Positions 39,530 through 62,360 of a stretch of DNA of 64,000 nt are shown piece by piece. The stretch covers positions 1 through 64,000 of the IMG/VR virus record IMGVR_UViG_3300037042_007110; one strand, 5' to 3'. Below the pieces are notes generated by a model. It worked only from the letters and a program-made list of their open reading frames with translations, was not told where the DNA came from and made no database searches. The position numbers were made by a program, and so were the translations under genes. The stretch comes from an uncultured virus (IMG/VR IMGVR_UViG_3300037042_007110). Lineage: Duplodnaviria > Heunggongvirae > Uroviricota > Caudoviricetes. Positions within the stretch are counted from its first letter, which is position 1. Each line of letters begins with the position of its first letter.

Positions 39530-42094
39530 GTGCGCAGCCGCCCGCTATACCCGGAGGAGCCGGTCAGCCCCGTCAGCACAGGGGCCGAGCTGGACATCGA
39601 CCGTGGCTGCTCGCGGTGCAAGCTCGGCGCACTCGCGCGCCATCCCTGTCTCCCAGCGGACGGAACCCCTGGCGGGGTCGTGTTCATCGGCAAGCACCCA
39701 GGAAAGGTCGAGGACACGGCCGGCCGCGCGCATGTAGGCCAGAGCGGAAAGACGCTTCGTGAGATCGTTGGAAGACACTGGACCGGTCCAGCCGTCTACG
39801 ACAACGTCGTTCGGTGCTTCCCGGGACAGGGGAGGTCGCTGCCAGCGAACAGCATCACCGAGTGCCGCCCGTACCTCCGTCGCATACTCCGACAGGCTCG
39901 ACCGCAGCGCATCATCGCGCTTGGCGCCGAGGCTGCGCTCGGGCTGGTCGGACGGTCGGTTCCGGTGATGAGCGTCCGCAGCGGCTACGCCTGGACGCGG
40001 ATGCCAGACGGGGCTCTCGTGCCCGTGTTCTTCGTTCCGCACCCGGCGGCCGGGGAGCGGAATCCCACGCTCCAGCGGTTCATCGAGGACGACATTGCCT
40101 TCGCCCTGCGGCGGCCCGTTCCTATCCGACCGCCCTGGGCCGCGAGCTACCACCTGGTCGAGACGCCGGACGACGCAGCCGCCGCGGTCGCGGACATCCG
40201 GGACGAGGCTCCCTGGTGCGCGTACGACCTGGAGTGGTCGGGCGTACCGTTCACGCGGTTCTTCGAGGTCGTGACCGCGGCGGTGTGCTCCTCTGGCACA
40301 GACGAGCCCTACGTCTGGAGCAGGAACGCGCTCCATGACCCGGCGACGCGGCGGCCGCTGCTCGATCTGCTGGCCGACCCGGCGGTCGGGAAGGTCGGCC
40401 ACAACATCAAGAGCGACAACCAGTCGGTGTACGCGGCGTGGGGCGTTCAGGTACGCGGGACCTACGGCGATACCCGGCTCTGGCGGCGGCTCCTGTGTGC
40501 CGACGTCAACGCCAAGCTCGACGTGTGCGCCGAGCTCGTCGGGATGGGTGGGCACAAGGAGGAGAACGAGTCCTGGCTCGAGAAGGCGGTGGCGGCCATC
40601 CGTGACAGGCGCCGAGACAGGAAGTCCCGGCAAGAGGCGATGTTCGAGGGGAACGACCCCGCGTTGCTCGCCGCCGTTGCGGCCCCGGACGAAGACCCGA
40701 AGCGGTTCGCCTTCGCCCTCATTCCGCCCGAAGTTCGCGACCGCTACTGCGCTCGAGACGCCGTGGCGACGGCCCGGCTCGGAGACATGGAGGAGCGCCA
40801 GCTCGACGCCGACCCGCCGATCCGCCGGGTGTGGACGTCCATCGTGCACCGGGCGACGGACGCCGTGGAGCAGATGGAGCGGTGGGGCATCGCCGCCGAC
40901 CGAGCAGCGATGGGCCAGTTCGACGCCTACCTCGGAATGGAGATCGAGCAGGTCTCGCGGCGGCTCGCGACCTATGGGACGTTCAACCCGGCCTCCGCCG
41001 CCGACGTGTCGCGGTTGCTCTTTGACGAGCTGAAGCTGAAGCCGCTGGCCATGACCAGCTCCGGGGACCGCCCGTCCACGGACAAGGAGGTGCTGAAGCG
41101 GCTGCGCTACGACCATCCGGTGGTCGGCGACATCATCGAGTACCGCCGGCTCGAGAAGCTCCGGTCCAACTACGGACTGAAGATGGCCGCGTTCGTTCGG
41201 ATGGACGGCCGCATCCACCCCGAGCTGAAGATCGACGGTGCGGAGACGGGGCGGCTGTCGTGCGTCAACCCTCCGCTGCACCAGATACCCCGCTCCTTCA
41301 CGGCCGAGGGCAAGATGATCAAGCGGTGCTTCGTGGCACCGCCCGGGTACCTAATCCTCAACGCCGACTACTCGCAGATCGAACTGCGCACCGCCGCCTT
41401 CCTGTCTGGCGACCCGGTGATGATCGCCATGTTCCAGAGCGGGGAGGACTTCCATCTGGCGACGGCCAAGCTCATTTGCGAGGCGTACTGGGGAATCAAG
41501 GCGTCGGCCGTCGAGGACAAACACAGGACACAGGCCAAGAGCTTCAACTTCGGGCTTCTGTACGGCATGACCGACCGCGGGCTCGCGAAGCGGCTCGGCT
41601 GCTCGGTCGCGGATGCCAGCCGCCTGCGCGCCGCGATCATGGGGAAGTGGAAGCGCCTCGCCGTCTGGATGCACGAGCGCATCACGTCGACCAGGAAGAC
41701 GGGCTATGCTCGGACCTGGTGGGACGGCGCCGACGCGCGTCGGCGGCCGCTCTTCGGCATCCGGTCGACGGACAATCTCCAGCGCAGCAACGCGGAGAAC
41801 AGCGCCATCAACACCCCGGTCCAGGGGACCGCGAGCGACTTCATGCTCTCGTCCATCTGCGCCCTGGTCGAGTGGGTGCTCCGGGATGGGCTACCCGCCA
41901 AAGTTGTGCTCACCGTTCACGACAGCGTCGTGTTCGAAGTGCGGGCAGACGCCGTGGATGACCTTGCCGTGGGGGCGCTCGACATCATGCTCGCGCACAA
42001 CAGCCTGGCCGTGCCGCTGCGCGTGGACGTCGAGGTCGGGCAGACGCTCGGCGACATGGACGAGTGGCAACAGCCGGGAGCAGCGGCGCAATAA
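39530..42094 (+). CDS. Family A DNA polymerase with N-terminal uracil-DNA glycosylase (family 4-like) domain and 3'-5' exonuclease
   Basis: CSRCKL, GKHPG..ED, VRCFP, ECRPYL, HPAA (UDG); YDLE, GHNIKSD, YCARDA (exo); ETGRLS, ADYSQIELR, AKSFNFGLLYG, NTPVQGTA, VHDS (PolA). Confidence 0.95.
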   Translation: MRSRPLYPEEPVSPVSTGAELDIDRGCSRCKLGALARHPCLPADGTPGGVVFIGKHPGKVEDTAGRAHVGQSGKTLREIVGRHWTGPAVYDNVVRCFPGQGRSLPANSITECRPYLRRILRQARPQRIIALGAEAALGLVGRSVPVMSVRSGYAWTRMPDGALVPVFFVPHPAAGERNPTLQRFIEDDIAFALRRPVPIRPPWAASYHLVETPDDAAAAVADIRDEAPWCAYDLEWSGVPFTRFFEVVTAAVCSSGTDEPYVWSRNALHDPATRRPLLDLLADPAVGKVGHNIKSDNQSVYAAWGVQVRGTYGDTRLWRRLLCADVNAKLDVCAELVGMGGHKEENESWLEKAVAAIRDRRRDRKSRQEAMFEGNDPALLAAVAAPDEDPKRFAFALIPPEVRDRYCARDAVATARLGDMEERQLDADPPIRRVWTSIVHRATDAVEQMERWGIAADRAAMGQFDAYLGMEIEQVSRRLATYGTFNPASAADVSRLLFDELKLKPLAMTSSGDRPSTDKEVLKRLRYDHPVVGDIIEYRRLEKLRSNYGLKMAAFVRMDGRIHPELKIDGAETGRLSCVNPPLHQIPRSFTAEGKMIKRCFVAPPGYLILNADYSQIELRTAAFLSGDPVMIAMFQSGEDFHLATAKLICEAYWGIKASAVEDKHRTQAKSFNFGLLYGMTDRGLAKRLGCSVADASRLRAAIMGKWKRLAVWMHERITSTRKTGYARTWWDGADARRRPLFGIRSTDNLQRSNAENSAINTPVQGTASDFMLSSICALVEWVLRDGLPAKVVLTVHDSVVFEVRADAVDDLAVGALDIMLAHNSLAVPLRVDVEVGQTLGDMDEWQQPGAAAQ

Positions 42095-47318: not shown

Positions 47319-47576
47319 ATGGGGCTCTACGACAGGCAGACCAGCCTCAAGATGTCCGAGGCGGAGGAGCTGTCTTGGCGACAGGCGGCGGCGGCGAACG
47401 GGATGCCGCTTCAGACGTGGATGCGTGTGACGCTGGACTACGCGGCGGGGTGCGGTCAACTGGCCGAGCAACTGACCGCGGCGGCCGGAGCGCAGCGGGT
47501 CGAGCACGCGGCGCTCATGCGGGACGCGAAGGCGCTCGGCGGGCCGACGAAGGCGCAGGGCGGGCGGAGGAGGTAG
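47319..47576 (+). CDS. Ribbon-helix-helix-like DNA-binding protein
   Basis: TSLKMSEAEELSWRQAAAANGMPLQTWMRVTL pattern; GGAGG RBS. Confidence 0.65.
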   Translation: MGLYDRQTSLKMSEAEELSWRQAAAANGMPLQTWMRVTLDYAAGCGQLAEQLTAAAGAQRVEHAALMRDAKALGGPTKAQGGRRR

Positions 47577-48019
47577 TGCCGACCGCGCGGGTCACCGTCT
47601 GTGCCGAGTTGCCCGGGCTTGTGGACTGGCTGCTCGGATGGAACCGCTCGGCGCCAAGAGGCTCCGACCTCTGGCCGGACCAGGTCGCCGCCCTGTCCCG
47701 CGTGGCCGCGCGCCTGGCGAACGAGCCGACGGAAGACGACCCCGAGCACCGGCAGGCCTGGAAGCCGTCCGACACGCTCGTCCGGGTCAACAACTTCTGG
47801 ACGGACGTGGCGTACCTGAAAGCCCGTGGCCCGCGCGGGCCGGCTGGCCGTGTGTTGTGGCCTCCGAAGGACAGGGAGCTGATCACGCACGCTCGGTACG
47901 TTTGCCAGCTCGCCGTGGCGGCCCGGCCGCACCCCGACGAAGTGGCCGCTGCTCTGGAGCGGTTGCTGCTGGCGGCGAACATCATGGAGGCGGAGTGGCG
48001 CCTGGGAGGCGGGCTGTGA
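47576..48019 (+). CDS. Hypothetical protein with C-terminal AEWRLG motif
   Basis: GGAGGAGG RBS, TAGTG overlap; ends IMEAEWRLGGGL. Confidence 0.6.
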   Translation: MPTARVTVCAELPGLVDWLLGWNRSAPRGSDLWPDQVAALSRVAARLANEPTEDDPEHRQAWKPSDTLVRVNNFWTDVAYLKARGPRGPAGRVLWPPKDRELITHARYVCQLAVAARPHPDEVAAALERLLLAANIMEAEWRLGGGL

Positions 48020-48324
48020 CCGTTACCGACCGCACGTCCGCCGACGAGCTGCGCGACCTCATGCTTGCGCTCTGCGGCGAAGCGATTCAAATGGGGTGCT
48101 CGAGCTGGTACTTGTCAAGCGAGGTGCGGCGGCTCCGCGGAATGGACTGTTCCGCCCCCATTCGCAAGCAGACCAGGGACGGCTTCAGGCGGTCGATGAG
48201 CGTCGTGGACTCCATCGCCCTCGGGATGCCGGCGAGCGCAGCCTTCAGGGAGATGCGCGCTGCAGTCGGCCGTGCCTGGTCCATCATGGACGCGGAGTGG
48301 CGCTTGGGCGGGCTGGGCCTGTGA
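48016..48324 (+). CDS. Hypothetical protein with C-terminal AEWRLG motif
   Basis: GTGA overlap; ends IMDAEWRLGGLGL. Confidence 0.6.
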   Translation: MTVTDRTSADELRDLMLALCGEAIQMGCSSWYLSSEVRRLRGMDCSAPIRKQTRDGFRRSMSVVDSIALGMPASAAFREMRAAVGRAWSIMDAEWRLGGLGL

Positions 48325-48361
48325 GCATCGGATTGCCAGCGGCCGGCGGCGGGGCGGGTCG

Positions 48362-48883
48362 ATGAGGCGGCCGGCCGGCTGGGCGCTGACCGACCCGGAG
48401 TTCGGCACGCCGCCCGCGCTGGCGAAGTCGCTGGCTGTTCGGTGGGCTGGCGGCGCGTTCGACCTGGACGTGGCCGCCAGCGACGCGCTCCACGTCTGTC
48501 CGACCTACTTCACCGCCCGCGACGACGGGCTGACGCAGCCGTGGGCCGGCGTCTGCTACATGAACTGCCCCTACGGAACGGCCGAGCAGCGATGGGTGAC
48601 GAAGGCGCGGGCGGAGGTGCTGACCGGGCGGGCTCGCCGCGTTGTCGCCCTTCTGCCTGCGAAGACGGGGAAGGTCTGGTGGCGAAGGTTCATCGTCGCT
48701 CAGGATCAGCCTCCGGCCGGTGGGCTCGTCCTCGTGTACCCCGCGTTCCACTTGGAGTTCCTGCCCAACAAGCTGCGGTACGTGCGGCCGGATGGGGTGC
48801 CGCTCGACAAGGCACGGTTCTACTCGGTCGTGGTCGTGTTCGAGGACTGGGCGGGCCGCGCTCGGTGCGCGGGCGCTCAATGA
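48362..48883 (+). CDS. Phage-type DNA N6-adenine methyltransferase (Dam-like), NCPY variant
   Basis: FGTP, FDLDVAAS, DDGLTQPW, YMNCPYG, VALLPAKT..WW motifs. Confidence 0.85.
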   Translation: MRRPAGWALTDPEFGTPPALAKSLAVRWAGGAFDLDVAASDALHVCPTYFTARDDGLTQPWAGVCYMNCPYGTAEQRWVTKARAEVLTGRARRVVALLPAKTGKVWWRRFIVAQDQPPAGGLVLVYPAFHLEFLPNKLRYVRPDGVPLDKARFYSVVVVFEDWAGRARCAGAQ

Positions 48884-49959
48884 GCGCGGTGGGGAACGGG
48901 ACCATGCAGCTTCACGAACAGAACCCGGAGTTGACCGCTCGCGTGATGGCCGCGGTGCGGCGGTCGAAGCGCAAGGACGGGCTGACAGCGACCAACGTTG
49001 GCCGGCGGTGCGGGCTTCCACCGTCGAACTCCGGGAAGGACGACCCCGACGTGCGGATGCGTGTCCAAGGCTCGTACCAGGAGGTGCGTGTGCTGCTCGG
49101 CTACCTCGTCGACATCGGGTGGCTCGAGAGGCTCCGTGGGCGGGGCGGCTCCTCGTACCGTCTGGCGTCGGAGACTGTTCGCGAGCAACACGTCACGGAC
49201 GCCGGCAGAAACGCGGCGGCCGAGGACGTGTGCCGCGCGCTCGGTGTCCTGTACGACGGCACCCCGACCGTCTACATCAGGGCGGAAGAGATGCCGGACG
49301 TGCGGTCGGTGCTCCTGATGACCGGGCTGGTCGCGAGCGGGCCGCCGCACGGACGGGCGATCACGCTGACGCTGACGGCGGACGAGGCGACGTTGATCCG
49401 GGGACTCCTAGAGCCGGCGCGAATCGAGGAGGCGGTGCTCTTGGACCGGCTTGGCGCAGCAGTGGCGCGGGCAGCGACCCGGCGGCTGGGTGTGGAACCG
49501 TGCCCAGCCTGCAGCGGCGGCGGTGTCGTGAGCCACACGGACTACGTCGGCTACCACAGCTGGCCCTGTGATCGGTGCGGCGGCTCCGGCGATGCGCCCG
49601 GAGGCGATCCAGCGGCGAGTACAGCGACACCGGACCTGCAACGACGGGCTCGCCGGCTCTCGTGCTCGCCGGATTGCCCGGGTTACAGGACGGTGCGCGG
49701 GTTCGCAACGAGCATCCTCCCAAGCGATTACATCCAGGTCGTCGGGTGCCGAAAGTGCGGGCTGTACAGGAACCGAGAGGCGGCGCTCGCCATATCGGCG
49801 GACCGAGCGATTGCGGTCGACGTCCGATCCGGAGTTCGGCGCCCGGTCATCGGGTCCGACGCGTGGATGAACTTCCGGAATCTCGTGTACGCCATTCCAG
49901 TCGAGGACGTCGTGGCGCTCGACTTGGCCCTCCCGGCGGCCGGAGGGGATGGGGGCTGA
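48880..49959 (+). CDS. Multi-domain protein: winged-HTH plus CxxCxGxG and further Cys clusters
   Basis: LLGYLVDIGWLER...SSYRL wHTH end; CPACSGGG, CDRCGGSG, CSPDC, CRKC; start may be 48904. Confidence 0.55.
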   Translation: MSAVGNGTMQLHEQNPELTARVMAAVRRSKRKDGLTATNVGRRCGLPPSNSGKDDPDVRMRVQGSYQEVRVLLGYLVDIGWLERLRGRGGSSYRLASETVREQHVTDAGRNAAAEDVCRALGVLYDGTPTVYIRAEEMPDVRSVLLMTGLVASGPPHGRAITLTLTADEATLIRGLLEPARIEEAVLLDRLGAAVARAATRRLGVEPCPACSGGGVVSHTDYVGYHSWPCDRCGGSGDAPGGDPAASTATPDLQRRARRLSCSPDCPGYRTVRGFATSILPSDYIQVVGCRKCGLYRNREAALAISADRAIAVDVRSGVRRPVIGSDAWMNFRNLVYAIPVEDVVALDLALPAAGGDGG

Positions 49960-50389
49960 CGTGCGCCAGAAGTTGGCCGCGCTGCTCGATCACCACGCTC
50001 CGCCAGAGGCGGTCGCCGCCTACCGACTGAGCGGCGGCCCGGCGACCGGCTTCGTGGTCCTGTCGGCACTCGAGACGGGGCTCTCGCACCACCCGGCGCT
50101 CCTGCTCCTCCTCTGCGACGACGGCGGGCCACCTTTGGCCGGGAAGCGATGGTGGGCGGGCCGTGGCTTCGTCGCGTTGACCCAGGTCATGCGGCCGACC
50201 AGCGGGGAGGCGGCGGACACGGACATCAGCACGACGGAGGTCCAGCTCCTGAACATCGACCCCGTGCAGGCGGACGGGCTGGAGGGTGCGGTCCGGCCCG
50301 GGGCGCGGCTGTCGCTGGCGTTCGACGCCATCCGGCGTCGCTGGTGCATTGGGGTTGACCGTGGGCGCGGGGATGTGGAGTGGTGGTGA
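49949..50389 (+). CDS. Hypothetical protein, motif-bearing (APPEAVAAYRLS)
   Basis: GGAGG RBS; chained overlap with neighbours. Confidence 0.6.
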   Translation: MGADVRQKLAALLDHHAPPEAVAAYRLSGGPATGFVVLSALETGLSHHPALLLLLCDDGGPPLAGKRWWAGRGFVALTQVMRPTSGEAADTDISTTEVQLLNIDPVQADGLEGAVRPGARLSLAFDAIRRRWCIGVDRGRGDVEWW

Positions 50390-50754
50390 TGCCCAAGCAG
50401 CGGCACCGACTCCCGGGGAACCTGTTCGAGCGCATGCACGACGCCTTCGTGGAGGCGGCCGGAAACGACACGCCCGGGCTGGTCGGCGCGCTGCTCGGGT
50501 TTCTGCCACCGGAGATAGCGGCCGAGGTGAGGCTAGGCGGCGGGGCGCGCGTCAACATGTGGTTCGAGCACAGGAACAGCCTGGCGTTCGCCTACGCGTC
50601 GCTCGATGGGAGGACGTATCGGGTCGGGTGCTTGGACCGCGCCGACACCGAGGGTTTCCGGCGCCTTGTGGCTGCTGCGTTCGAGTGCCACATTCAGCTC
50701 CGGGTGCCACGTCAAGAGGCGCGGGCGCTCTGGAGGGGGACGAGGCGGCCGTGA
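50389..50754 (+). CDS. Hypothetical protein, motif-bearing (LPPEIAAEVRLG)
   Basis: TGATG coupling; also DGRTYRVG. Confidence 0.65.
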   Translation: MPKQRHRLPGNLFERMHDAFVEAAGNDTPGLVGALLGFLPPEIAAEVRLGGGARVNMWFEHRNSLAFAYASLDGRTYRVGCLDRADTEGFRRLVAAAFECHIQLRVPRQEARALWRGTRRP

Positions 50755-51113
50755 CGCACTGGCTGGATCGTCAGGTCTCTATTTCCAAGGCTGAGGGGCT
50801 GCGCATCCACAGGCGGATCGTGCGGAAGTTGCCAATGGTGGGTCAGGCGGCCGCTCGGCTCGGCGAGCCCGTGGCGCTTATGATCGAGACGGTGACCGTG
50901 CGCGGCAAGCCGTACGCGTGGATCAACCACGTTGTCTGGGCACGGACCTTGAGTTCCAACGAGCGTTGGACGCGGGTGTCGACGCTGTTGATGGCCAAGA
51001 CTGCGCGCAAGTACCTGACCGCGGCGCGGGCCGTTGGCTGGTCCGTGGAGTTCCGGAAGCGGAGCATGAGCGACGAGCAGCCGGACCAGCCAATGCCGGA
51101 AGACGAGGCGTGA
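50751..51113 (+). CDS. Hypothetical protein, motif-bearing (LPMVGQAAARLG)
   Basis: GTGA overlap, GAGG RBS. Confidence 0.6.
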   Translation: MTHWLDRQVSISKAEGLRIHRRIVRKLPMVGQAAARLGEPVALMIETVTVRGKPYAWINHVVWARTLSSNERWTRVSTLLMAKTARKYLTAARAVGWSVEFRKRSMSDEQPDQPMPEDEA

Positions 51114-51115
51114 GG

Positions 51116-51526
51116 ATGCCGTTCCGTCGGCGGGAGTTCGTGGGCGAGGACAGGAGCGGGCGGAACCTCTGCGACGTCTTGTTTCCCGGCACCGGGGACG
51201 ACGTGAAGGACTTGGAGGTGTCGGCCGGGCGGCTGCGGGCGCTGCTTCCGGAAGCCGTCCAGGCAGCCCTTCGGCTCGGTACACAGGGGACGCTCTGCGT
51301 CTTGACCGAGTTCCTGTGCGGCCAGCTCGAGCTCCGCCACCCGTTCGTCTGGCACGTCGTCCTGGTCGTCGACAACGAGTGCTACTCGCTTGGTGGGTGC
51401 CACGGGTGGGGCACGCCGACAGCGGTAGCCAGTTGCGCGCAGACGCTCGGCCTTGGGTACGAGGACGGGGCCGCGGAGACCCCGAAAGGCGCCCTGTTCA
51501 ACTACGACCGTGGGTGGCTGTCGTGA
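51116..51526 (+). CDS. Hypothetical protein, motif-bearing (LPEAVQAALRLG)
   Basis: ATG 2 nt after upstream stop. Confidence 0.6.
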   Translation: MPFRRREFVGEDRSGRNLCDVLFPGTGDDVKDLEVSAGRLRALLPEAVQAALRLGTQGTLCVLTEFLCGQLELRHPFVWHVVLVVDNECYSLGGCHGWGTPTAVASCAQTLGLGYEDGAAETPKGALFNYDRGWLS

Positions 51527-51536
51527 GGGCGTACTG

Positions 51537-52028
51537 ATGGGGCAACAAACGGGGCAACAAACGGGGCAACAAACCACGCAACTATGCGAGCAGCAAGGCG
51601 AAGATGGTATCGTGCTCCGAACGAGTTTGGAAGACGATTTGTTCCGGGCTTACATGACCTTCGACGGCGGGGCATCCGTGGACAGATGGGGGTACACGAA
51701 CGCCCGTCGGATGACCGATTGGAACCTGGCGAAGCAAGCCATCCTGACCGGCGTGGTGCTTCGCCGTCTGCCCGACGCGACCGGAGCAGCGATCCGTCTC
51801 GGCGAGCGGGCGTGCGCGGTGGTGACGGTTGAGACCAGGGAGCACCGGCGACGGAAGCCGGGAGGGCACGTCGTTGTTCGGCAGCTCAATCTGCACGCGC
51901 TGGTGAGGGTGCTGGGACGGACGTATCGGCTCGGCTCCGTCCGACGCAAGCGGGCCAGGGAGCTGTTGAGGGAGGCGTTGCTCGGGTGTTGCGTGTCGGT
52001 GTGCTGGGACGGGAACGTGCTGAAGTGA
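51537..52028 (+). CDS. Hypothetical protein, motif-bearing (LPDATGAAIRLG)
   Basis: Begins with GQQT repeats; also LGRTYRLG. Confidence 0.6.
   Translation: MGQQTGQQTGQQTTQLCEQQGEDGIVLRTSLEDDLFRAYMTFDGGASVDRWGYTNARRMTDWNLAKQAILTGVVLRRLPDATGAAIRLGERACAVVTVETREHRRRKPGGHVVVRQLNLHALVRVLGRTYRLGSVRRKRARELLREALLGCCVSVCWDGNVLK
51539..51574 (+). repeat. 12-bp tandem repeat GGGGCAACAAAC x3
   Basis: Three perfect copies read directly. Confidence 0.95.
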
Positions 52029-52525
52029 GCCGGCCCGGACCACTCGTCATCGCGCCTCCGGTGACGCTCGCGGTGGTCGCGAGCGCGCTTCTCCAGCGGG
52101 TGTGCGACGTGCTGCCGCCGGACAAGGCGGCGCTGCTCCGGCTTGGCCAGACGTTCCCGTTGGCGATCGGCTGGCGCTTCCTGGCGAAGTACTCGGACGG
52201 CCCGAGGGGAAGCGGCCGGCTCCACGTCTGCGTCCGCGCCGTGGGGAAACGCGACGGGTGTTCGGCCTACCTGGGCTTCCTGCCCGGTTTCGACAAGTCG
52301 GGTCAGGACGCGACGACCATCACGCAGGCGGCCATGGAGTACGGCTGGGCTGTGGACCCCGGCGCCTACGCAGCCGAAAGCGCGTGCTCCTCGTGCAGAC
52401 GCCGGTCGCGCGACCCGACGACCCCGTACATGGCGCGGTGCTGGTGGCACCATCGGACGCTCAAGCGCCGGGTCGCCCTGCTCCAGCGTCCTCGGGGCGT
52501 CGGCGGGCCGACCTGGTCGTGGTAG
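52025..52525 (+). CDS. Hypothetical protein, motif-bearing (LPPDKAALLRLG) with CxxC..C..H tail
   Basis: GTGA overlap; CSSC...CWWH. Confidence 0.6.
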   Translation: MSRPGPLVIAPPVTLAVVASALLQRVCDVLPPDKAALLRLGQTFPLAIGWRFLAKYSDGPRGSGRLHVCVRAVGKRDGCSAYLGFLPGFDKSGQDATTITQAAMEYGWAVDPGAYAAESACSSCRRRSRDPTTPYMARCWWHHRTLKRRVALLQRPRGVGGPTWSW

Positions 52526-52567
52526 ACGACCTTCCGCGTCCGCCGAAGCGGTGACCGCTCGCCAGCT

Positions 52568-52634
52568 TGCAGACGCCGTGCAGACGATGCTGACCGGTGC
52601 AGACGATGCTGACCAGGTGCAGACGATGCAGACC
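52568..52634 (+). repeat. Intergenic array of TGC(A/T)GAC cores; GTGCAGACGATGC(T/A)GACC x3
   Basis: 18-mer copies at 52578, 52597, 52617; seven TGCWGAC cores spaced 9-11 bp. Confidence 0.9.
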
Positions 52635-52644
52635 CCGCTCCCAC

Positions 52645-53784
52645 CTATCGGACCCAGTCGGTGAGCGGCATGAGGATGTCCAGGTCGCGAGGCCCGAGCC
52701 GGCACTGGCGCGCCCCTGCCCGCCGGAGCCAGGCGGGGAGCGTCTCCTTGTTGTGGATGCCCCGCATCAGCCAGTAGAAGCGGAAGGCGCCGAGCGCGCG
52801 GTCCGTCCAGTAACGGCCCACGTGCTTGCCGGCCCGTTCGATCTTGTCCAGCGGGACGTACTGCTGCGGGTACGGGCGGATGCCGAGCCGGAGGACCTCC
52901 ATCAGCTTGTAGTGCGACTCCGCCGGCGTGTCGTGGAAGTTGTAGAGCACGAACGCCATCATGTCCTCGACGTGGCACCCCGCCTTGATGAGCCGGCGGG
53001 CCGCCGACTGGAACACGCCATCGTCGCCGACCCGGTCGAAGCTCATGCGGAGCCCCGACAGCCCGTACCGAAGCCGGGCCAGCCGTGCGGCCACGTCGTC
53101 GTCGACCCGGTGGCAGTCGAAGCCGTTGTCGAAGCACGCCTTGAGTCCCGACGCTTCCACGGCGTCCAGCACGGCGGTCCAGTGGGCGTCGGGCCACGCG
53201 AGCAGGTTGTTGTCGCTGACGAGGACCGTGTCCTTGCCGCGGACGACCATCTGCTCACGCCACCCCTCGACGACGTAGCGGGGCCGCTCGATGCGTCCGA
53301 CCACGCAGTATGGGCAGGAGTTTGGGCAGCCGCGGGTCGTGTAGACGAAGGCGGCCGTCTCGAACTTGGGGTCGGGCCGCCAGGCGAGCGAGTAGTCGGG
53401 ACGGACCGCGTCCAGTACCGGGGAGGTGCCGCAGAAGACGTCGGCCCCGGTCGCCCCGGCCACAAGGTCGGGCATGAGCGACGCCAGTACCCCGCCAACC
53501 ACGATGCGAGCTCGCGGCGCGACTCGCCTCGCCCGGTCGATGGACTGGATGAGGATGGTCAAGTCCTGCGTCCACAACGACCCCACGCAGACCAGGTCCA
53601 CGTCCGCGTCGCCACGGTTCAGCCACCGCCCGTACCGCGGCGCCTTCCCAGCCAGCCGTAGATAACCCGCGATCCGCGCGAGTCCCATCGGGATGTGCTT
53701 CCGCCGATGCGGCGGCTCGAGCAGGAATACCACCCGCCCGGCGTCCAGCGCTCCGAGCATCTCCGCTTCCGTCAGTCGTGCCAT
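52645..53784 (-). CDS. Radical SAM protein with N-terminal cobalamin-binding-like domain
   Basis: PMGLARIAGYL and IVVGG.AS (B12-binding-like), TTRGCPNSCPYC (CxxxCxxC), SDNNLL, FVLYNF.DT; GGAAGGAG RBS. Confidence 0.88.
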   Translation of the reverse strand: MARLTEAEMLGALDAGRVVFLLEPPHRRKHIPMGLARIAGYLRLAGKAPRYGRWLNRGDADVDLVCVGSLWTQDLTILIQSIDRARRVAPRARIVVGGVLASLMPDLVAGATGADVFCGTSPVLDAVRPDYSLAWRPDPKFETAAFVYTTRGCPNSCPYCVVGRIERPRYVVEGWREQMVVRGKDTVLVSDNNLLAWPDAHWTAVLDAVEASGLKACFDNGFDCHRVDDDVAARLARLRYGLSGLRMSFDRVGDDGVFQSAARRLIKAGCHVEDMMAFVLYNFHDTPAESHYKLMEVLRLGIRPYPQQYVPLDKIERAGKHVGRYWTDRALGAFRFYWLMRGIHNKETLPAWLRRAGARQCRLGPRDLDILMPLTDWVR

Positions 53785-54044
53785 CGTCGCGTGGCTCCTT
53801 CCCAGCCCACGCCCCGAACTCTACCGGGTGGTGGCCAGCGTATCCAGTGGCCAAGCCCTCGGCGGCCCGTGAGCAACAGGACGGGGAAGTAGGACGGACG
53901 GAGCAGCGCGGCCGGCTTGGGTGGTTGCCCGGTGTACCCGGCCGCGGTGACGGCGCCGGGTGCAGAAGCGGGCGCACCCCGTTGTCAGGCTGGATGACCG
54001 GCCCCAGGTCGAGTACAGTCGTGTGGACAACGGAGGCGGTCCCC

Positions 54045-54860
54045 GTGAGCGAGAAGTCAGAACCCCTGTGCAAGCCAATCGAGCGGGAGGTCTATGACGC
54101 GCTGCTCGCTGCGTTTCGTGCCGTACCCGGAAACGTCAGTGCTGCTGCGAAGGCGGCGGGGGTCGCGCGTAAAACGGCACGATTAGCACTACTTAGGGGC
54201 TGGCCGGCCCGCCGGTGGCCGCCGATTCGGGACGTGTTGGAGCAGGAGCAACGGCTGGCCAGGGCGATCCGATTTCAGGCCGATGGTGGGGGCGTGCAGG
54301 CGCCCGGCGGCGATACAGCTTCCGTGCAGACGCCGGGTTCTATGGCAGCACTCCAGGCCTCCCCGCAGGGGCTCCATCCCGAAGCCGCACGGAAGCTGGC
54401 CTTGGACGCGGAAGCGGCCGCGCTCGACGCAGCCCGGGCACGAGCTCAGGAAGGACAGATGGTCCAGCTGTCCCGCGGCAACACCATTGCCCTGATGGGC
54501 ACGACAAGCCACCTGCTCCGAGCGGGCGTGGCCCGTGCGCAGGCGCTGCAGAAGTCGCTGGACGCTGGCGATGTGCTGCTGACGCCCGCGCAGACGTTGC
54601 AGTTCGTCTCGAGCTGCGGGTACTTGGCGAAGACCGCGGCCGAAGCCGCGGAGACCACCATGCGAATGGAGCGCCTCCTCCTCGGCGCGCCGACCGAGAT
54701 ACTCGGCATCCAGGCCGACCGCATGTCCATGGACGACGCCGAGCGCGTCATCGACATGGCCTCCCGGGCGCTCGAGCGCGTCCGAGCCCAGGAAGGCCTC
54801 GTGCGGGTCGAGGCTTACGTCGTGGACCCGCCGCCCAAGGGCGAGCCGCGCAAGCCGTGA
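54045..54860 (+). CDS. HTH protein resembling terminase small subunit
   Basis: GNVSAAAKAAGVARKTAR N-terminal HTH then helical body and MERLLLGAPTEI; GGAGG RBS before GTG. Confidence 0.55.
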   Translation: MSEKSEPLCKPIEREVYDALLAAFRAVPGNVSAAAKAAGVARKTARLALLRGWPARRWPPIRDVLEQEQRLARAIRFQADGGGVQAPGGDTASVQTPGSMAALQASPQGLHPEAARKLALDAEAAALDAARARAQEGQMVQLSRGNTIALMGTTSHLLRAGVARAQALQKSLDAGDVLLTPAQTLQFVSSCGYLAKTAAEAAETTMRMERLLLGAPTEILGIQADRMSMDDAERVIDMASRALERVRAQEGLVRVEAYVVDPPPKGEPRKP

Positions 54861-54888
54861 GCGCGGGCGGACGAGGCTGCCTGCCGCG

Positions 54889-54996
54889 GTTCACCATGCT
54901 CACCATGTTCACCACGCTGTAGAACATGCAGGCCGGCTACAGACCATGCAGACCGCCTGTAGAACATGCAGACCGCCTGTAGAACATGCAGACCGG
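54889..54996 (+). repeat. Composite array: G(T/C)TCACCA(T/C) x3 then 20-bp CTGTAGAACATGCAGACCGC-like x4
   Basis: 9-mers at 54889-54915; 20-mers start at 54917, 54937, 54957, 54977. Confidence 0.9.
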
Positions 54997-54999
54997 GGC

Positions 55000-55660
55000 G
55001 CTTCCGTACAGACTCCGAACACTTGGCGCGGTTGTAGGTCCATCCGCGCGGAGCCACGACCTCACAGACTGTACACCGATTCCGCGGTGAGCCGGCCTGT
55101 CGGGGCCGGCCGCGACGGGACGCGCGCGGGCGCGCGAGTAGAGAACGCCGTCCTGTGGCCTCCCCGACCCCGTGCCGCGCCCACCGAGGCGCCAGGCCGG
55201 CTGGCCGTTCCAGCAGCACTCCGGCGGCGGCCAGCCGCCGGCCTGGCGCCAGACCCGCATCCGGCCGGAGTCACCCTAACGATTTGGAGGGGTTGCCCCT
55301 CCAGGCCGGGCTCCGCTGCCGGAGCTAAACCCTCCATATCATTGACGAAACCGCCCCCCCGGGGGGGCCGCCGGCCGTGGCCGGGGCGGTGGGTGCTAAC
55401 GTGCTCCTCCATCCGCACCCTGAACTCACCCCTTGCGCCCCGCACGCAGTCCGCGCCGATTCTGCGAAGACGGCGCGGCTCCGGCCCGACGGCGCTGCTC
55501 GGGTGGGGGTCGGCGCGCTGCCGCCAATGCGCCACCGCCCCGAGCAGCCGCCCTTCTGCGCGGACTTGAGCCACCGTCCTTGGCCGCACAACGGGCTCCG
55601 CACCGACTCTGGCTTTGACCCGGCACCCTTTCGACGGCTTTGCTTCGTGCTGCGCCGCGG
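55000..55660. other. Long apparently non-coding, inverted-repeat-rich region
   Basis: No ORF with convincing RBS or protein-like content; stems at 55188-55250, 55285-55303, 55451-55478, about 55494-55548. Confidence 0.55.
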
Positions 55661-55680
55661 GCCGGCTCAATGACCCGGCC

Positions 55681-56022
55681 GTGACCTTCATCGACAGAAC
55701 CGGAGCGCTGCTGACCACCGCCCCCACCGTGGAGGCTGCTGCCGTGGAGTCGGCCGAGGCGCGGCTCTACGGGCCAGTGGCCCACCAGCTCGTGATGATG
55801 GTGCCGCGAAGCGACCCGCTACAGCGTCGGGTCTTGCCGCCGGACCTGCTGCTCGACCTGAAGTTCGAGCGCGAGGTGGACACGGCTCCGTTCTTCGTCC
55901 CCAACCTGCGGGCCGCCCGCGACGCCGGCTACGTCGCGCTGTGCCTGGGACGGACCTACCGCCTGTTCGGCGTGAAGTCCCTGTTCGCCAGCGCGGTACA
56001 GCTCCGCCTGGTCGCCCAATGA
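55681..56022 (+). CDS. Hypothetical protein, motif-bearing (ESAEARLY)
   Basis: GTG 6 nt after GCTCAATGACC; N-terminus similar to 59048 and 59482 ORFs; LGRTYRL. Confidence 0.6.
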   Translation: MTFIDRTGALLTTAPTVEAAAVESAEARLYGPVAHQLVMMVPRSDPLQRRVLPPDLLLDLKFEREVDTAPFFVPNLRAARDAGYVALCLGRTYRLFGVKSLFASAVQLRLVAQ

Positions 56023-56030
56023 CCGCGTCG

Positions 56031-56405
56031 ATGAAGGGCTTGCGCGTGTTCGCGCTGCGGTTCCTGTCCCCGTCGCCAGACGAGCCGACGGAGGCTGACC
56101 TGAACCGGCACGGCCTCCTCGACGTGGGGGCGCACGGGTGGGACATGCTGCTCTCGCGGCTGCCGCCCGAGGCCGAGGCGGAGGTGCGGCTCTCGGTGGT
56201 GCGCCCCGTCGTGTACATCGAGGTGGGGCGCGAGCTCAACCCGCACCGGATGGCGGTCGAGGTCGCCGGCCTCGGTCTGTACGACGTGGGCTGGTCCTGG
56301 TACTCGAGCCTGGTCGTGGCGGCGGCGGGCGGCTTCGGCCAGCGGATTCCGCTCCTGCTGTGGGACGCGGCGCTGGCCGGTCACTACGCCCGGCGGGCGC
56401 AATGA
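56031..56405 (+). CDS. Hypothetical protein, motif-bearing (LPPEAEAEVRLS)
   Basis: Start 56031 or 56019; ends AQ-stop. Confidence 0.6.
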   Translation: MKGLRVFALRFLSPSPDEPTEADLNRHGLLDVGAHGWDMLLSRLPPEAEAEVRLSVVRPVVYIEVGRELNPHRMAVEVAGLGLYDVGWSWYSSLVVAAAGGFGQRIPLLLWDAALAGHYARRAQ

Positions 56406-56412
56406 CCGGGCC

Positions 56413-56889
56413 GTGGCGAAGCGGAAGCCCGACGTCTTTCTGAACGGTCTGCTCCTCCTCGGCGATGATGACGCGCCCGACGGCCACGGCGACTACTTCT
56501 GGGAGCCGGGGCAGCTGCTCCCCACGTTCGGCTTCAACCCGAAGGAGGGGCACGTCCTCATCCTGGCCCGAGCCAACGGCGACAGGGAGGCGTTCATCTA
56601 CCGCGGCGGCGAGTGGCTCGGCGGGGTGGCGTCGGTGGTCAAGGCGATCAAGCGGCTCCACGGGGTCAGGGGCGTGCGGGTCATCTCCGCCCGCGACGTG
56701 CAGGGCGACTACAGCATCCTGATGGTGACCGCCGCCCGGAAGCACCACGCCGCGTTGCAGAAGATGGCCGAGGTCTTCATCGGCGGAACCTTCGCCGCGG
56801 TGCGGTGCATGGCGCTGATCCGCGCACCCGGGCTGTTGGGCGACGCGGACGAAGCCGCATGGCGCCTCGGGCAGCAGGCGAAGCCGTGA
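56413..56889 (+). CDS. Hypothetical protein with C-terminal motif (LGDADEAAWRLG)
   Basis: GTG 6 nt after GCGCAATGACC; strong GC3 bias. Confidence 0.65.
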   Translation: MAKRKPDVFLNGLLLLGDDDAPDGHGDYFWEPGQLLPTFGFNPKEGHVLILARANGDREAFIYRGGEWLGGVASVVKAIKRLHGVRGVRVISARDVQGDYSILMVTAARKHHAALQKMAEVFIGGTFAAVRCMALIRAPGLLGDADEAAWRLGQQAKP

Positions 56890-57524
56890 GCCGGGGCACC
56901 GGGTACAACAGGCGGCGGCGGGTTCGGCTACGGGAAGGCGCGGGGCTGCCCTACCGCTGGTGGGCGACGCAGAAGTCGGTCAGGTACAGCGTCAGCATCG
57001 ACTACACGACAGGTGCCGGACCCTTCTGGCCGGGGCGCGGGCCGTCGGAGGGCGCCCGACGGGTTCCGGTCTCGACGTTCGACGAGCTCGACGGCGACGC
57101 TCTGCGGCGGGCGCTGCTCGACCGGCTGCCGGACACGGTCGTCGCGGAGTGGCGGCTGGGGTGCGGCCGGCTCACGGTCTGGCTGGAGGAGCGGGCGGCC
57201 CGGGCCGAGGGCTTTCTGCCGACGGGCGTGCGTCGGCTCGGCCGGGCGGTCAGTCGACAGAAGGTCGTCTGCCTCAACCCGTTGCTGTCGCGGGAAGGCT
57301 GGTTTGTGACGACCCCGGAGTGGACGCCGGACCACGTCCCGGAGTGGTCGGCGGCCGGGCGGCTCGTGGTCGTGGACGTGGCTGTCTACGGGGTCGGTGT
57401 GTTCCGCGTCGGCCGGGCGACCCGCCCGAGTACCGTGGCCCGTGTGGTCGGAGCAGCAGTCGCGCTGCGGCTGCCCGCCTATGGCGACCCGGGCGCCGAG
57501 CTGTGGCTCCGGTCCGCGCAATGA
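56886..57524 (+). CDS. Hypothetical protein, motif-bearing (LPDTVVAEWRLG)
   Basis: GTGA overlap; ends AQ-stop. Confidence 0.6.
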   Translation: MSRGTGYNRRRRVRLREGAGLPYRWWATQKSVRYSVSIDYTTGAGPFWPGRGPSEGARRVPVSTFDELDGDALRRALLDRLPDTVVAEWRLGCGRLTVWLEERAARAEGFLPTGVRRLGRAVSRQKVVCLNPLLSREGWFVTTPEWTPDHVPEWSAAGRLVVVDVAVYGVGVFRVGRATRPSTVARVVGAAVALRLPAYGDPGAELWLRSAQ

Positions 57525-57542
57525 TCAGGCCGGAGGCCGACC

Positions 57543-57668
57543 ATGTTCCACCACCCGACCGTGTTCCCGCGCTGGCTGGTGTGCCTCGCGTGGGTCATCG
57601 ACGGCGCCGTCGCGGCGGCCGCCGGCGCCGCCCGTTGGTTGCGGCGATTCCCGGGGTTCGAGTCATGA
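57543..57668 (+). CDS. Small hydrophobic peptide (41 aa), not in the ORF track
   Basis: GGAGG RBS at 57532-57536; MFHHPTVFPRWLVCLAWVIDGAVAAAAGAARWLRRFPGFES; ATGA overlap with next gene. Confidence 0.55.
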   Translation: MFHHPTVFPRWLVCLAWVIDGAVAAAAGAARWLRRFPGFES

Positions 57669-58027
57669 GCGAGTCCTACGTCAAGAGGATGCAGCGGGAA
57701 CGCGACGCGGCTGTCCGCCGGGCCGAGGCTGCCCAGGACGCGCTGGAGGCTGCTCTGGGCGGCGACCTGGCCTGGCAGAAGCGGCTGGCCGAGGAACGGC
57801 GCGATCGCTGCCGCGTGCTGTGGGCGGTGCTGGAGCACTACCGCGTCGCCGTCGCCGAGTTCATCGCTCCGACGGCGACGACCGACTGCGTCGCGGCGAT
57901 CAACCGGGCCGGGCGGGTAGCTGCCGTCGCCGTCGAAGGCGGGCCGCTCGGGCACCAGGGCGAAATCACGACCGAGGACAGGCCTCCGCTGGCCGATCTG
58001 GAGCGCATTCTCGGGGTGGTGCGATGA
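57665..58027 (+). CDS. Hypothetical coiled-coil protein
   Basis: ATGA overlaps on both sides. Confidence 0.55.
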   Translation: MSESYVKRMQRERDAAVRRAEAAQDALEAALGGDLAWQKRLAEERRDRCRVLWAVLEHYRVAVAEFIAPTATTDCVAAINRAGRVAAVAVEGGPLGHQGEITTEDRPPLADLERILGVVR

Positions 58028-58752
58028 TGCCCGCGTCGATCCGCGACCTCGTCGTCCGGGCCGTCGAGGCTGAAGGCTGGGACGGGCTATTCAACGAGGA
58101 CGGAGAGTGCGCCTGCGAGGCGCGCGACCTGTTTCCGTGCTGCGACCCGTCCGTCGACTGCATGCTCGGCATGAAGTGCCCGTGCCCGCCCGAGCTGTGT
58201 GGCGAGCACGACTGGCACATCGCGCCGGGCTGTCCGCGCGGCGCTGGGTCTGGTTTGCCCTCGGAGTTGAACATCGCAGCTGCGATGTCGCCGGTGAAGC
58301 CGCCCCGAGCCGACGAGCCGCTGCTGGAGGCGCTCGACAACCAATGCATGCTCGGGGACGACCCCGCCGATCCTGCGACGGCGATAGAGCGGCACGCACG
58401 CGAACTGATCGCGGAGCGCGACGCCGCCGTCGCCCGCGCCGAGAAGGCCGAGGCTGCTGTAGTGCAGTGGAAGGCGCGCTCCGCGTCGTGGGCCGCGTGC
58501 TTGAGGCTCTTCAAGAACGACGGTGACGTGGCCGACGTGGTCGCACTGATCGACGCCGCGCTCGATAGCTCCGACGTTGCCACCATGGCCGACACGCGCC
58601 GCGTTGACTGGCTAGAGACTCAGGACTGCTGGATCGGGCTGCGCGATACGGGCTCTGAGATCAGACCGCTGCGGTATGCCGGCGGGTGCTACAGACGCTC
58701 GGTGCGTGACGTAGTTGACGCCGCCCTGGTCGACGAGCCCGAGGAGGAGTGA
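58024..58752 (+). CDS. Hypothetical protein with Cys-rich N-terminus and coiled coil
   Basis: WDGLFNEDGECAC..DLFPCC; chained overlaps. Confidence 0.6.
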   Translation: MMPASIRDLVVRAVEAEGWDGLFNEDGECACEARDLFPCCDPSVDCMLGMKCPCPPELCGEHDWHIAPGCPRGAGSGLPSELNIAAAMSPVKPPRADEPLLEALDNQCMLGDDPADPATAIERHARELIAERDAAVARAEKAEAAVVQWKARSASWAACLRLFKNDGDVADVVALIDAALDSSDVATMADTRRVDWLETQDCWIGLRDTGSEIRPLRYAGGCYRRSVRDVVDAALVDEPEEE

Positions 58753-59048
58753 CCGTGGGCACGCCAGACAGGATGCGGCGTCCGCCTTACCCGGTCTGTC
58801 CGGTGTGCGGAGGCCAGGTCGTCGGTGCGATGATGACGAGCGGCTCCGTTGAGATTGACGGTGTTCGGTTCTACCGACCGGAGGCCGTCTCGGTCTACTG
58901 CTCGTCCGGCGGCTGTAACTACGACAGGCTGCTCGCCGAGCTACCATTCCCTCCGGTTGACCAGAACAGGACGTCGGACGCCGCCCAGCGCGAGGCCACG
59001 GCGGTCAGTTCGCCGGGTGACCGCGCCGGGCGAAGGGGACCGCGCTGA
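58749..59048 (+). CDS. Hypothetical zinc-ribbon protein
   Basis: CPVCGG...CSSGGC; GAGGAGG RBS. Confidence 0.55.
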   Translation: MTVGTPDRMRRPPYPVCPVCGGQVVGAMMTSGSVEIDGVRFYRPEAVSVYCSSGGCNYDRLLAELPFPPVDQNRTSDAAQREATAVSSPGDRAGRRGPR

Positions 59049-59482
59049 TGGGCGTTGCCGTGAACGATACCGTTGCGGGTCTAGACCCTGTGGTCTTCAT
59101 CGACACGCGGGGCTGCGCCGTCACGCTTGCCGCCACACGCCGAGCAGCGACGTTGGCCGAAGCCGAGGCGCGGCTCGGTGGGCTGCGGTACGAGGTCGAC
59201 ACGATGGCCGTCGGAGCCTACCGGCGCGTCGTGAAGGAGCGGGGACGGGGTGACGTCGTGGCGTCCATCCGTGGCGTCCGCCTTCCGCGCCCCTTCCGCG
59301 ACCGCGACGGCACATGTCGGTCGGTCTATGGTGACGTGTCGGAGCGTTGGCTCGCGTTGTCGCTCCGCGCCTTCATGCACTATCCCGTGCTCGCCGATTC
59401 CCGTTGGCTCTTCCTGCTTGGCGCCACGGAGGCGAATCGAACTTTGGAGCTCGAGCTCGTTTGGATGCTCGGAGCAAACTGA
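59048..59482 (+). CDS. Hypothetical protein, motif-bearing (LAEAEARLG)
   Basis: TGATG coupling; N-terminus VVFIDTRG similar to 55681 and 59482 ORFs. Confidence 0.6.
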   Translation: MGVAVNDTVAGLDPVVFIDTRGCAVTLAATRRAATLAEAEARLGGLRYEVDTMAVGAYRRVVKERGRGDVVASIRGVRLPRPFRDRDGTCRSVYGDVSERWLALSLRAFMHYPVLADSRWLFLLGATEANRTLELELVWMLGAN

Positions 59483-59820
59483 TGGGGTCGCCGGCGAAAC
59501 CGCTCATCGTGGTGGACGAGGGCGGTGCGTTGCTCGTCTGTGCCAGAACCCAAGCGGACGCCGTGGCTGCCGAGGCGGAGGTGCGGCTCGGAGCCGACCT
59601 GGTTCCGGTCCTCTTCATGCGGATCGCGGACGAAGCTCCCGGCCTCCTGGTCGTTCTGTTGCTCTGGCGTGGGGGCCGCACGAGCGAGGTTACGCTCTGG
59701 GCGACGGCCGCCCTCCAGGCGTACATCGGGCTCCCGGTACGGTTCAACGATGCCGCGTGGGTGCTGAACGATGTGGAGCGGAGCGAGTGGGGCGTGATCC
59801 GGCTGACGCTCCGTCCGTGA
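59482..59820 (+). CDS. Hypothetical protein, motif-bearing (AAEAEVRLG)
   Basis: TGATG coupling; N-terminus LIVVDEGGA. Confidence 0.6.
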   Translation: MGSPAKPLIVVDEGGALLVCARTQADAVAAEAEVRLGADLVPVLFMRIADEAPGLLVVLLLWRGGRTSEVTLWATAALQAYIGLPVRFNDAAWVLNDVERSEWGVIRLTLRP

Positions 59821-61887: not shown

Positions 61888-62091
61888 ATGAACGGATCGG
61901 TGATGGCCGACGCGCGACAGCGGTACGAGATCTGCGACGCGGAAGCCTGGGAACGCCAGGCAGCGGGCGTCGAGGCCGAGGCTGACCGCCTGGAGAGCAA
62001 CGCGCGGGCGCTCCGCGAGCAGGCGAAGTCCATGCGGCTCCTGGCGCAGCAGGCGCGGGGACGGGCTGCTCACCCGACGGGGGTGGCCTGA
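61888..62091 (+). CDS. Small coiled-coil protein
   Basis: GGAGG RBS after GCTCAATGACC. Confidence 0.55.
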   Translation: MNGSVMADARQRYEICDAEAWERQAAGVEAEADRLESNARALREQAKSMRLLAQQARGRAAHPTGVA

Positions 62092-62360
62092 TGCCCACGC
62101 AGGAACGCTACATGGGGCGGATAGGGGTCGTTCGGTTCTGTCGGGAGGTGACGCGGGCGCTGCCGCGCCTCTCGGTGCGCCGAAACCGCGTCTGGTACTG
62201 GCTGCCGTCCTGCTGGGGCATCGAGGTCGCGCGCCCGCTCTCGACGTGGCTCCTGTCCGCCTGGGGACGGACGCTCGTGCTGCGGCCGTCTCGTACCACG
62301 ATGGACGCCGTCGACGAGCTGAAGAACTGCTGCGCCTACTGGCACGAGACGGGGCGCTGA
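62091..62360 (+). CDS. Hypothetical protein
   Basis: TGATG coupling on both sides. Confidence 0.5.
   Translation: MPTQERYMGRIGVVRFCREVTRALPRLSVRRNRVWYWLPSCWGIEVARPLSTWLLSAWGRTLVLRPSRTTMDAVDELKNCCAYWHETGR

Follow-up and report, generated by a model that had tools for sequence, protein, structure and literature searches.

The first 64,000 bases of a 77,156-base IMG/VR virus contig (IMGVR_UViG_3300037042_007110), hereafter called the window, contain fourteen small genes that each encode one copy of a 12-residue motif, LPxxxxA[EA]xRL[GS]. This motif is real, statistically robust and selected at the protein level, and it is confined to small accessory genes. The small proteins that bear it form a phage-specific family, arranged in four tandem groups, and nothing else in them is strongly conserved. 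The explanation favoured here, to which we give about an even chance, is that a small alpha/beta gene underwent tandem amplification, after which its copies diverged beyond recognition. The helix formed by the motif would then be an integral part of a domain in eleven of the genes, kept for a shared function.

All fourteen copies translate exactly as the original prediction had written them. Each of them lies inside a single called small gene and is read in the frame with the highest third-position guanine plus cytosine (G+C) content. Genes were called by codon usage, trained on long open frames, which gave 110 genes for the 77,156-base contig. Among the 110 proteins, the core pattern A[EAL].RL[GSY] occurs 15 times, against 1.09 ± 1.05 times in within-protein shuffles (maximum 5; none of 500 shuffles reaches 15). 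The longer pattern LP....A[EAL].RL[GS] is observed seven times, with an expectation of 0.00 in 500 such shuffles. All 15 core matches are located between 47.5 and 62.4 kb, and none occurs in the tail, baseplate or replication genes among the 110. Called frames, with 24,241 codons, hold these 15 matches, whereas only nine are found among the remainder of the 154,312 codons of all six frames. The motif is thus enriched over composition-matched shuffles, as the original prediction required, and it is not equally frequent in structural genes or shadow frames.

A 16-column profile built from the fourteen copies separates them clearly from the other proteins: members score 13.8-22.4 bits and the best other protein 5.0 bits, while 20 shuffled proteomes give at most 7.8 bits. 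In a leave-one-out test among 97 proteins, 12 of the 14 copies rank first; the weak members are g059 (rank 35) and g062 (rank 20). The fifteenth core match, in g081 (62091-62360), was rejected as a member, as the profile does not recover it and a single match is the chance expectation. Across the copies, arginine is encoded by CGC, CGA, AGG, CGG and CGT and leucine by CTG, TTG, CTA, CTC and CTT. Where residues are identical, 254 of 582 codon pairs (43.6%) have the same third base, and composition alone predicts 38.8%. Because the Arg and Leu codons vary and third-base agreement is close to the expectation from composition, the conservation resides at the level of the protein, in line with the original prediction.

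The carriers form four tandem groups: the pair g050-g051, six genes in a row (g054-g059, 49949-52525), four in a row (g062-g065, 55681-57524) and the pair g070-g071. The two longer runs, with one copy in each gene, had been recognized from the start, and the two pairs are added to them. All fourteen genes are on the plus strand, and several of them overlap their neighbor by four bases at start and stop.

Three residues of the motif, Ala7, Arg10 and Leu11, are invariant in all fourteen copies. Eleven of them have Gly12, 13 have Glu or Ala at position 8, and Leu1 and Pro2 are each found in eight. A hydrophobic or aromatic residue occupies position 9 in every copy (four Trp, three Val, three Ala, two Leu and a single Tyr and Ile). 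The motif forms a short helix, opened by Leu-Pro and closed by Gly, with Ala7 and Leu11 on one side. On an ideal helix, positions 1, 4, 5, 7, 8, 9 and 11 make up a wide hydrophobic arc, and positions 2, 3, 6 and 10 form the sole polar stripe. The invariant Arg10 is found in the middle of this stripe, at 180 degrees and flanked by the mostly polar positions 6 and 3; these placements follow from ideal-helix geometry and are not measured exposure. The original prediction had considered that a buried core helix with no exposed conserved face would speak against a docking function; on this geometry, such a face is predicted, and the location of the invariant Arg on the predicted polar side suggests a shared contact.

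In 11 of the 14 carriers, the motif stands in one and the same local setting: it is followed by 1-6 residues, a beta-prone stretch and 69-125 further residues. The mean beta propensity after the motif is 1.24, compared to 1.116 ± 0.036 at random anchors in the same proteins (none of 5000 draws reaches it), and the beta-prone stretch is present in all eleven domain-bearing members. The motif had been described as sitting at variable places, in at least three different contexts. The count of contexts was overstated, as eleven carriers have the same local setting.

The run of six consists entirely of such domain-bearing genes. In g054 (49949-50389, 146 residues), the motif (49997-50032) occupies residues 17-28 and is followed by 118 residues. 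In g055 (50386-50754, 122 residues), which was modelled, it lies at 50503-50538 (residues 40-51, then 71 residues), and in g056 (50751-51113, 120 residues) at 50829-50864 (residues 27-38, then 82 residues). The next gene, g057 (51116-51526, 136 residues), carries its copy at 51245-51280 (residues 44-55), with 81 residues to follow, and g058 (51537-52028, 163 residues, 124 in the database call) carries it at 51768-51803, with 74 residues to follow. The last gene of the run, g059 (52061-52525, 154 residues), has Leu at position 8 of its motif (52112-52147, residues 18-29). Three genes of the run of four belong to the same type. These are g062 (55681-56022, 113 residues, 135 in the database call), with a Tyr in place of the final Gly of the motif at 55735-55770; g063 (56019-56405, 128 residues), with the motif at 56160-56195 (residues 48-59, then 69 residues); and g065 (56886-57524, 212 residues), with the motif at 57126-57161 (residues 81-92, then 120 residues). 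The final pair is composed of g070 (59048-59482, 144 residues, 130 in the database call; motif 59144-59179, then 100 residues) and g071 (59482-59820, 112 residues; motif 59557-59592, residues 26-37, then 75 residues), the second modelled member. Gene starts are uncertain, g058, g059, g062, g065 and g070 being called differently in the database; distances of the motif from the N-terminus may be off by up to about 40 residues, while those from the C-terminus are firm.

Two of the domain-bearing members were modelled with AlphaFold2, both with the same 11-sequence paralogue alignment. In the model of g055, the predicted local distance difference test (pLDDT) is 74-88 over approximately residues 31-100 and 78-88 in the blocks covering residues 41-90, with the motif region highest. 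The model consists of helices at residues 13-26, 30-37 and 42-49 (the motif), strands at 56-63, 66-73 and 76-84, which form a meander, and a helix at 85-99. The model of g071 (mean pLDDT 48.2) shows strands at 6-12 and 15-21, a helix at 24-35, strands at 41-48, 55-63 and 66-73, and a helix at 74-82. The order of elements, motif helix, three strands and a helix, is hence the same in the two models, of which that of g071 is of low confidence and shares its alignment with the other. A short beta-hairpin-like stretch ahead of the motif is alike in g062, g070 and g071, as judged by eye.

For most members, homology past the helix is suggested by this architecture and the two models, and not by sequence. 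Three of them, g055, g058 and g062, are also related downstream of the motif (Smith-Waterman Z of 5.5 for g058/g062, 2.7 for g058/g055 and 2.2 for the remaining pair) and have a second short stretch in common, Gly-Arg-Thr-Tyr-Arg-Leu-Gly. The constant setting fits a tandemly duplicated family better than a tag attached to unrelated proteins.

The three remaining carriers end with the motif. It covers residues 133-144 of g050 (47576-48019, 147 residues; motif 47972-48007), three residues from the C-terminus, and residues 87-98 of g051 (48016-48324, 102 residues; motif 48274-48309), four residues from it. In g064 (56413-56889, 158 residues), it is found at 56836-56871 (residues 142-153), five residues from the end. 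In these proteins, the helix is thus present by itself, 3-5 residues before the stop and with no downstream domain. The start of g051 overlaps the stop of g050 by four bases, and the stop of g064 overlaps the start of g065. Reading through the stops of g050, g051 and g064 gave no sensible continuation, and that of g050 looks off-frame.

At the DNA level, the tails of g050 and g051 align as a patch of 37 columns, in which 32 of the 34 paired bases agree and one 3-base indel occurs; the DNA upstream of it is dissimilar. This is the one place where the motif has apparently been copied as a short DNA patch. Since three carriers have the motif by itself at their end and since this patch exists, the helix can occur, and apparently be copied, without the rest, and it appears to be usable on its own; for a function of the helix in the absence of the downstream domain, the patch is the strongest support. 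The last codons of g050 (47999-48019, Arg-Leu-Gly-Gly-Gly-Leu) also hold the GGAGG-like ribosome site of g051, whose start codon, GTG, overlaps the g050 stop.

The phage that carries this family is represented solely by metagenome contigs. A further contig, 108,577 bases long and complete according to CheckV, has 99.8% identity to the studied one across the 20 kb that were compared (32 mismatches and one 6-base gap). The G+C content of the window is approximately 69%, and the source is a myovirus-like phage of about 108.6 kb with 69% G+C. This twin contig contains the same members and no extra ones in its additional 31 kb. Its differences from the studied contig comprise 12 non-synonymous and four synonymous changes in family genes, against seven of each kind in other genes, which is not significant (Fisher p = 0.26). 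A 6-base in-frame deletion in the twin is located in g059 (52402-52407), beyond the motif.

The family is so far unique, being found in this phage and its twin only; this holds for database searches, the literature not having been searched for the motif pattern. An 11-member profile was compared with 1.84 billion representative proteins and gave 10 matches at E ≤ 0.001, nine of which are proteins of this phage itself. The tenth, a 1060-residue tandem-repeat sequence matched in 10 stretches, is regarded as spurious. The profile search proposed along with the original prediction hence recovered the family, with no motif arrays outside this phage and its twin. Against the PDB sequences, the best match of the same profile was a ribosomal protein (E = 0.45). 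A word-indexed protein search with g058, g064 and g050 returned only the own cluster of each query, and tblastn of g064 and g050 found nothing in 50,697 deposited phage records. None of these records resembles the window by DNA similarity, and neither the region of 47-60 kb nor the tail genes have a match among them. A search with the RecA-like gene of the phage retrieved the twin contig only.

Family databases were equally silent. A Pfam scan of 15 proteins at E ≤ 1 yielded four noise-level matches to unrelated families, all below the cut-offs, and PHROGs and PADLOC likewise gave noise-level matches below the cut-offs for the carriers. Scanning viral contigs with a back-translated DNA pattern retrieved at least 120 stretches. 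For the 80 loci with DNA, among the matches listed, more than one profile match was present only in the twin contig, which had six. Six other loci, again among the matches listed, had one profile match each, of 8.2-13.0 bits, which is forced by the search pattern. The best other locus, on a 105-kb contig, was rejected: the family profile does not match it, and all that it has in common with the phage is a polymerase of 32% identity.

At the structural level, the g055 model had no match at E ≤ 0.001 among the best 50 from Foldseek against the PDB and BFVD, and a wide VIA-align search reached a best Z of 4.8 among its best 50 matches, a weak result that does not make the fold new. The ESM Atlas contained no usable match for g055. 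A lead from g064 to Lrp/AsnC-like clusters in the same atlas had a score of 0.76, below the level of evidence, and was not retained.

According to the favoured explanation, one small alpha/beta gene would have been duplicated repeatedly in tandem, and the copies would have diverged until only the helix could be recognized, together with one further short stretch in three members. The helix would have survived as a shared contact, either with one common partner or between the family members themselves. On indirect grounds, it was probably kept for more than folding: the remaining domain tolerated a complete turnover of its sequence, and a helix with no task beyond folding would be expected to drift as well; its Arg is invariant on the predicted polar side; and three proteins have retained it by itself.

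Several results weigh against this explanation. When post-motif profiles built from the other ten members were used to find the one left out, the ranks were 52, 33, 5, 60, 5, 74, 49, 31, 16, 66 and 55 of 100, with a median of about 49. The Smith-Waterman Z of family pairs has a mean of 0.09 (n = 55), against -0.02 for pairs of family and control proteins (n = 220; p = 0.56). All-against-all BLASTP matches the motif area only, with E = 0.003 over 36 residues for the best family pair. The shared fold rests on two models from one paralogue alignment, the less confident of which has the low mean pLDDT given above, and three carriers are entirely without a downstream domain. Moreover, the sole genome for comparison is the 99.8% identical contig. 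Near-identical database copies vary in 12 of 1130 columns and in none of the 96 motif columns, where about one would be expected; this variation is too low to test constraint. The confinement of the family to one uncultivated phage lineage limits what can be concluded.

The original prediction had interpreted the motif as a portable docking tag, an autonomous short linear motif that would have spread by recombination or convergence to unrelated folds and would plug their proteins into one phage or host hub. This is possible, though rather improbable. In its favor, the sequence outside the motif is statistically unrelated, so that little else is shared; in three carriers, the motif stands by itself at the very C-terminus; the likeness of g050 and g051 is restricted to the DNA patch over their tails; and the invariant Arg lies in the predicted polar stripe. 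A phage precedent is also available, as the T-even internal proteins are described as having only a capsid targeting sequence (CTS) in common (PMC3012670). In mechanism, such a tag overlaps with the favoured reading, but the data speak against its unrelated contexts: 11 of the 14 carriers have the motif in one local architecture, with a similar-sized domain after it, and the same order of elements is seen in both models. Tandem arrays of similar-sized genes are, furthermore, explained more simply by duplication. Also, Ala7, Leu11 and the hydrophobic position 9 belong to a broad hydrophobic arc, as packed helices typically have.

A phage adaptor of this kind is a similarly tentative idea. The RLG-ending helix would serve at least 14 fast-evolving proteins as a plug into the same hub, be it a host protein, a phage protein or a mixed assembly of the family members, and it could be transferred by short-patch DNA copying, as the tails of g050 and g051 suggest. 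It would function like the F-box and BC-box adaptors or the T4 CTS and be unrelated to both.

A purely structural role is unlikely. The capped helix would in that case be the folding nucleus of a shared small domain, conserved for stability and with no common partner. The Leu-Pro start and the Gly end fit helix caps, Ala7 and Leu11 are placed on one face, and the motif region is the part of the g055 model with the highest confidence. However, the rest of the domain has lost recognizable sequence, so that fold upkeep alone needs no near-invariant residues; Arg10, present in all fourteen copies, is nevertheless on the predicted polar side; and three proteins have the helix without the domain. 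If the helix proved to be only a fold nucleus, the family would still illustrate clearly the extent to which tandem paralogues can drift apart within one phage.

A signal for virion targeting or processing, acting in prohead entry or as a protease site like the T4 CTS, is very unlikely. The logic would be the same, diverse proteins with one short common sequence (PMC3012670), and the phage does encode metallopeptidase-like proteins (DUF2201_N match). On the other hand, the motif is never N-terminal, starting at residues 17-142, and the genes are located among replication and accessory genes and not among head genes.

Still lower in probability is a known signature, either the first helix and turn of a helix-turn-helix or the N-terminal signature of the SUKH (SMI1/KNR4) type. 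The motif presumably resembles the helix-turn-helix in its A-x-x-L-G turn, and SUKH proteins have an N-terminal helix with an A-E-x-x-L-G type signature. In PMC3113570, the SUKH superfamily is described as small alpha+beta proteins of low pairwise similarity, often encoded by tandem paralogues, recruited by viruses and binding diverse partners. The tandem arrays, the low similarity and the occurrence in viruses are indeed reminiscent of the family described here. The same source gives the SUKH core six strands, arranged as a hairpin and a four-stranded meander, together with four helices. The g055 model contains three strands, with four to five helices, and more strands are seen in that of g071, whose mean pLDDT is 48. 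The Pfam scan of the 15 proteins at E ≤ 1 included no SUKH profile and no helix-turn-helix family among its few noise-level matches, and in g055, a strand and not a recognition helix is modelled after the Gly. The structural searches with this model, limited to the best 50 matches, also gave no clear fold match, and no toxin genes were recognized among the scanned neighbors. Finally, an accident of composition in an Ala/Arg/Leu/Gly-rich proteome, for which one could cite the frequency of RLG alone (31 observed, 16.45 expected) and the nine core matches outside called frames, has next to no probability, being refuted by the shuffles, the frame comparison, the gap in profile score (13.8 against 5.0 bits) and the leave-one-out test, and by the location of all copies within 12 kb and in the coding frame.

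Whatever the role of the helix, this one genome provides its own comparison: its fourteen genes hardly resemble each other any more, and yet three residues of one short helix are the same in all of them. Phage accessory regions contain many small genes without known relatives or function, which offer few starting points for study, and the conserved helix marks a place to mutate and a bait for pull-downs.

Almost all of the 110 called genes of the contig are on the plus strand. According to Pfam, tail and baseplate genes are found at 4-16 kb and a replication and recombination block at 33-47 kb, with a helicase, a DnaB-like protein, a family-A polymerase with a uracil-DNA-glycosylase domain, and gp32-like, RecA-like, Mre11-like and Rad50/SbcC-like proteins. 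The polymerase (39530-42094) is one protein of 854 residues, in which the N-terminal uracil-DNA-glycosylase-superfamily domain is combined with a 3'-5' exonuclease domain and the polymerase itself. The motif genes start directly downstream of this block, and a Dam methylase is encoded at 48.4 kb (Pfam). Two Cys-rich proteins (48880-49959 and 58749-59048) beside the motif arrays have weak matches, below the cut-off, to the Lar restriction-alleviation zinc-ribbon family. Scans for tRNA genes and Rfam families gave no matches in the window.

The arrays are interrupted by the sole minus-strand gene of the region (52645-53784), which encodes a B12-binding/radical-SAM-like protein. Its relatives, at 35-43% identity, occur in phage contigs of 31-37% G+C, in contrast to the 69% of the present phage; no motif was found in these contigs. 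Between g061 and g062, about 820 bases (54861-55680) are without a called gene. Four head-to-tail copies of a 20-base unit (54917-54996) and several G+C-rich inverted repeats are found in this stretch, which may be a regulatory or origin-like region.

Elsewhere on the contig, the only clearly significant paralogue pair of an all-against-all comparison is formed by g001 (3-2243, residues 150-256) and g019 (18462-20231, residues 21-130), with 35% identity (E = 9e-12), both in the tail-gene region. Beyond the window, at about 66.3-69.0 kb of the same contig, g090, g094, g095 and g096 share a Gly-rich N-terminus (Met-Gly-Gly-Arg-Gly-Gly...) and then diverge. They are a second case in this phage of different proteins with one common end.

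Large phages and giant viruses have lineage-specific multigene families, in which small accessory genes that evolve fast lie in tandem on one strand, with coupled starts and stops. The family described here differs from these, as pairwise similarity is gone except for a 12-residue island with three invariant residues and as it was found in no other genome. F-box and BC-box (SOCS-box) adaptors combine a short conserved helical element with a variable remainder, by which many specificities are docked onto one hub. The likeness to these is one of concept only: in most copies here, the conserved helix has constant local surroundings, its carrier is a bacteriophage, and no F-box or SOCS-box profile was matched in the Pfam scan of the 15 proteins at E ≤ 1.

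The original prediction knew of no described phage system of this kind, but the T-even phages provide one. Their internal proteins are a highly diverse, defence-countering set in which only the CTS is conserved, and this sequence brings them to one common partner, the scaffolding core (PMC3012670). Diverse phage proteins with one short common sequence make the CTS the nearest described phage analogue of a tag. Two differences are evident. The CTS is N-terminal and its carriers are internal to the virion, whereas the motif starts here at residues 17-142, in genes of an accessory region; our gene calls do not place it at the extreme N-terminus, and the starts in the database do not bring it to residue 1 either. 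Furthermore, the motif is followed by a beta-strand and a domain in 11 of the 14 carriers, and three copies are C-terminal. If the helix is indeed a shared docking element, it would be the second independent case, after the T-even CTS, of one short tag handling diverse phage proteins, and it would offer a route to the hub.

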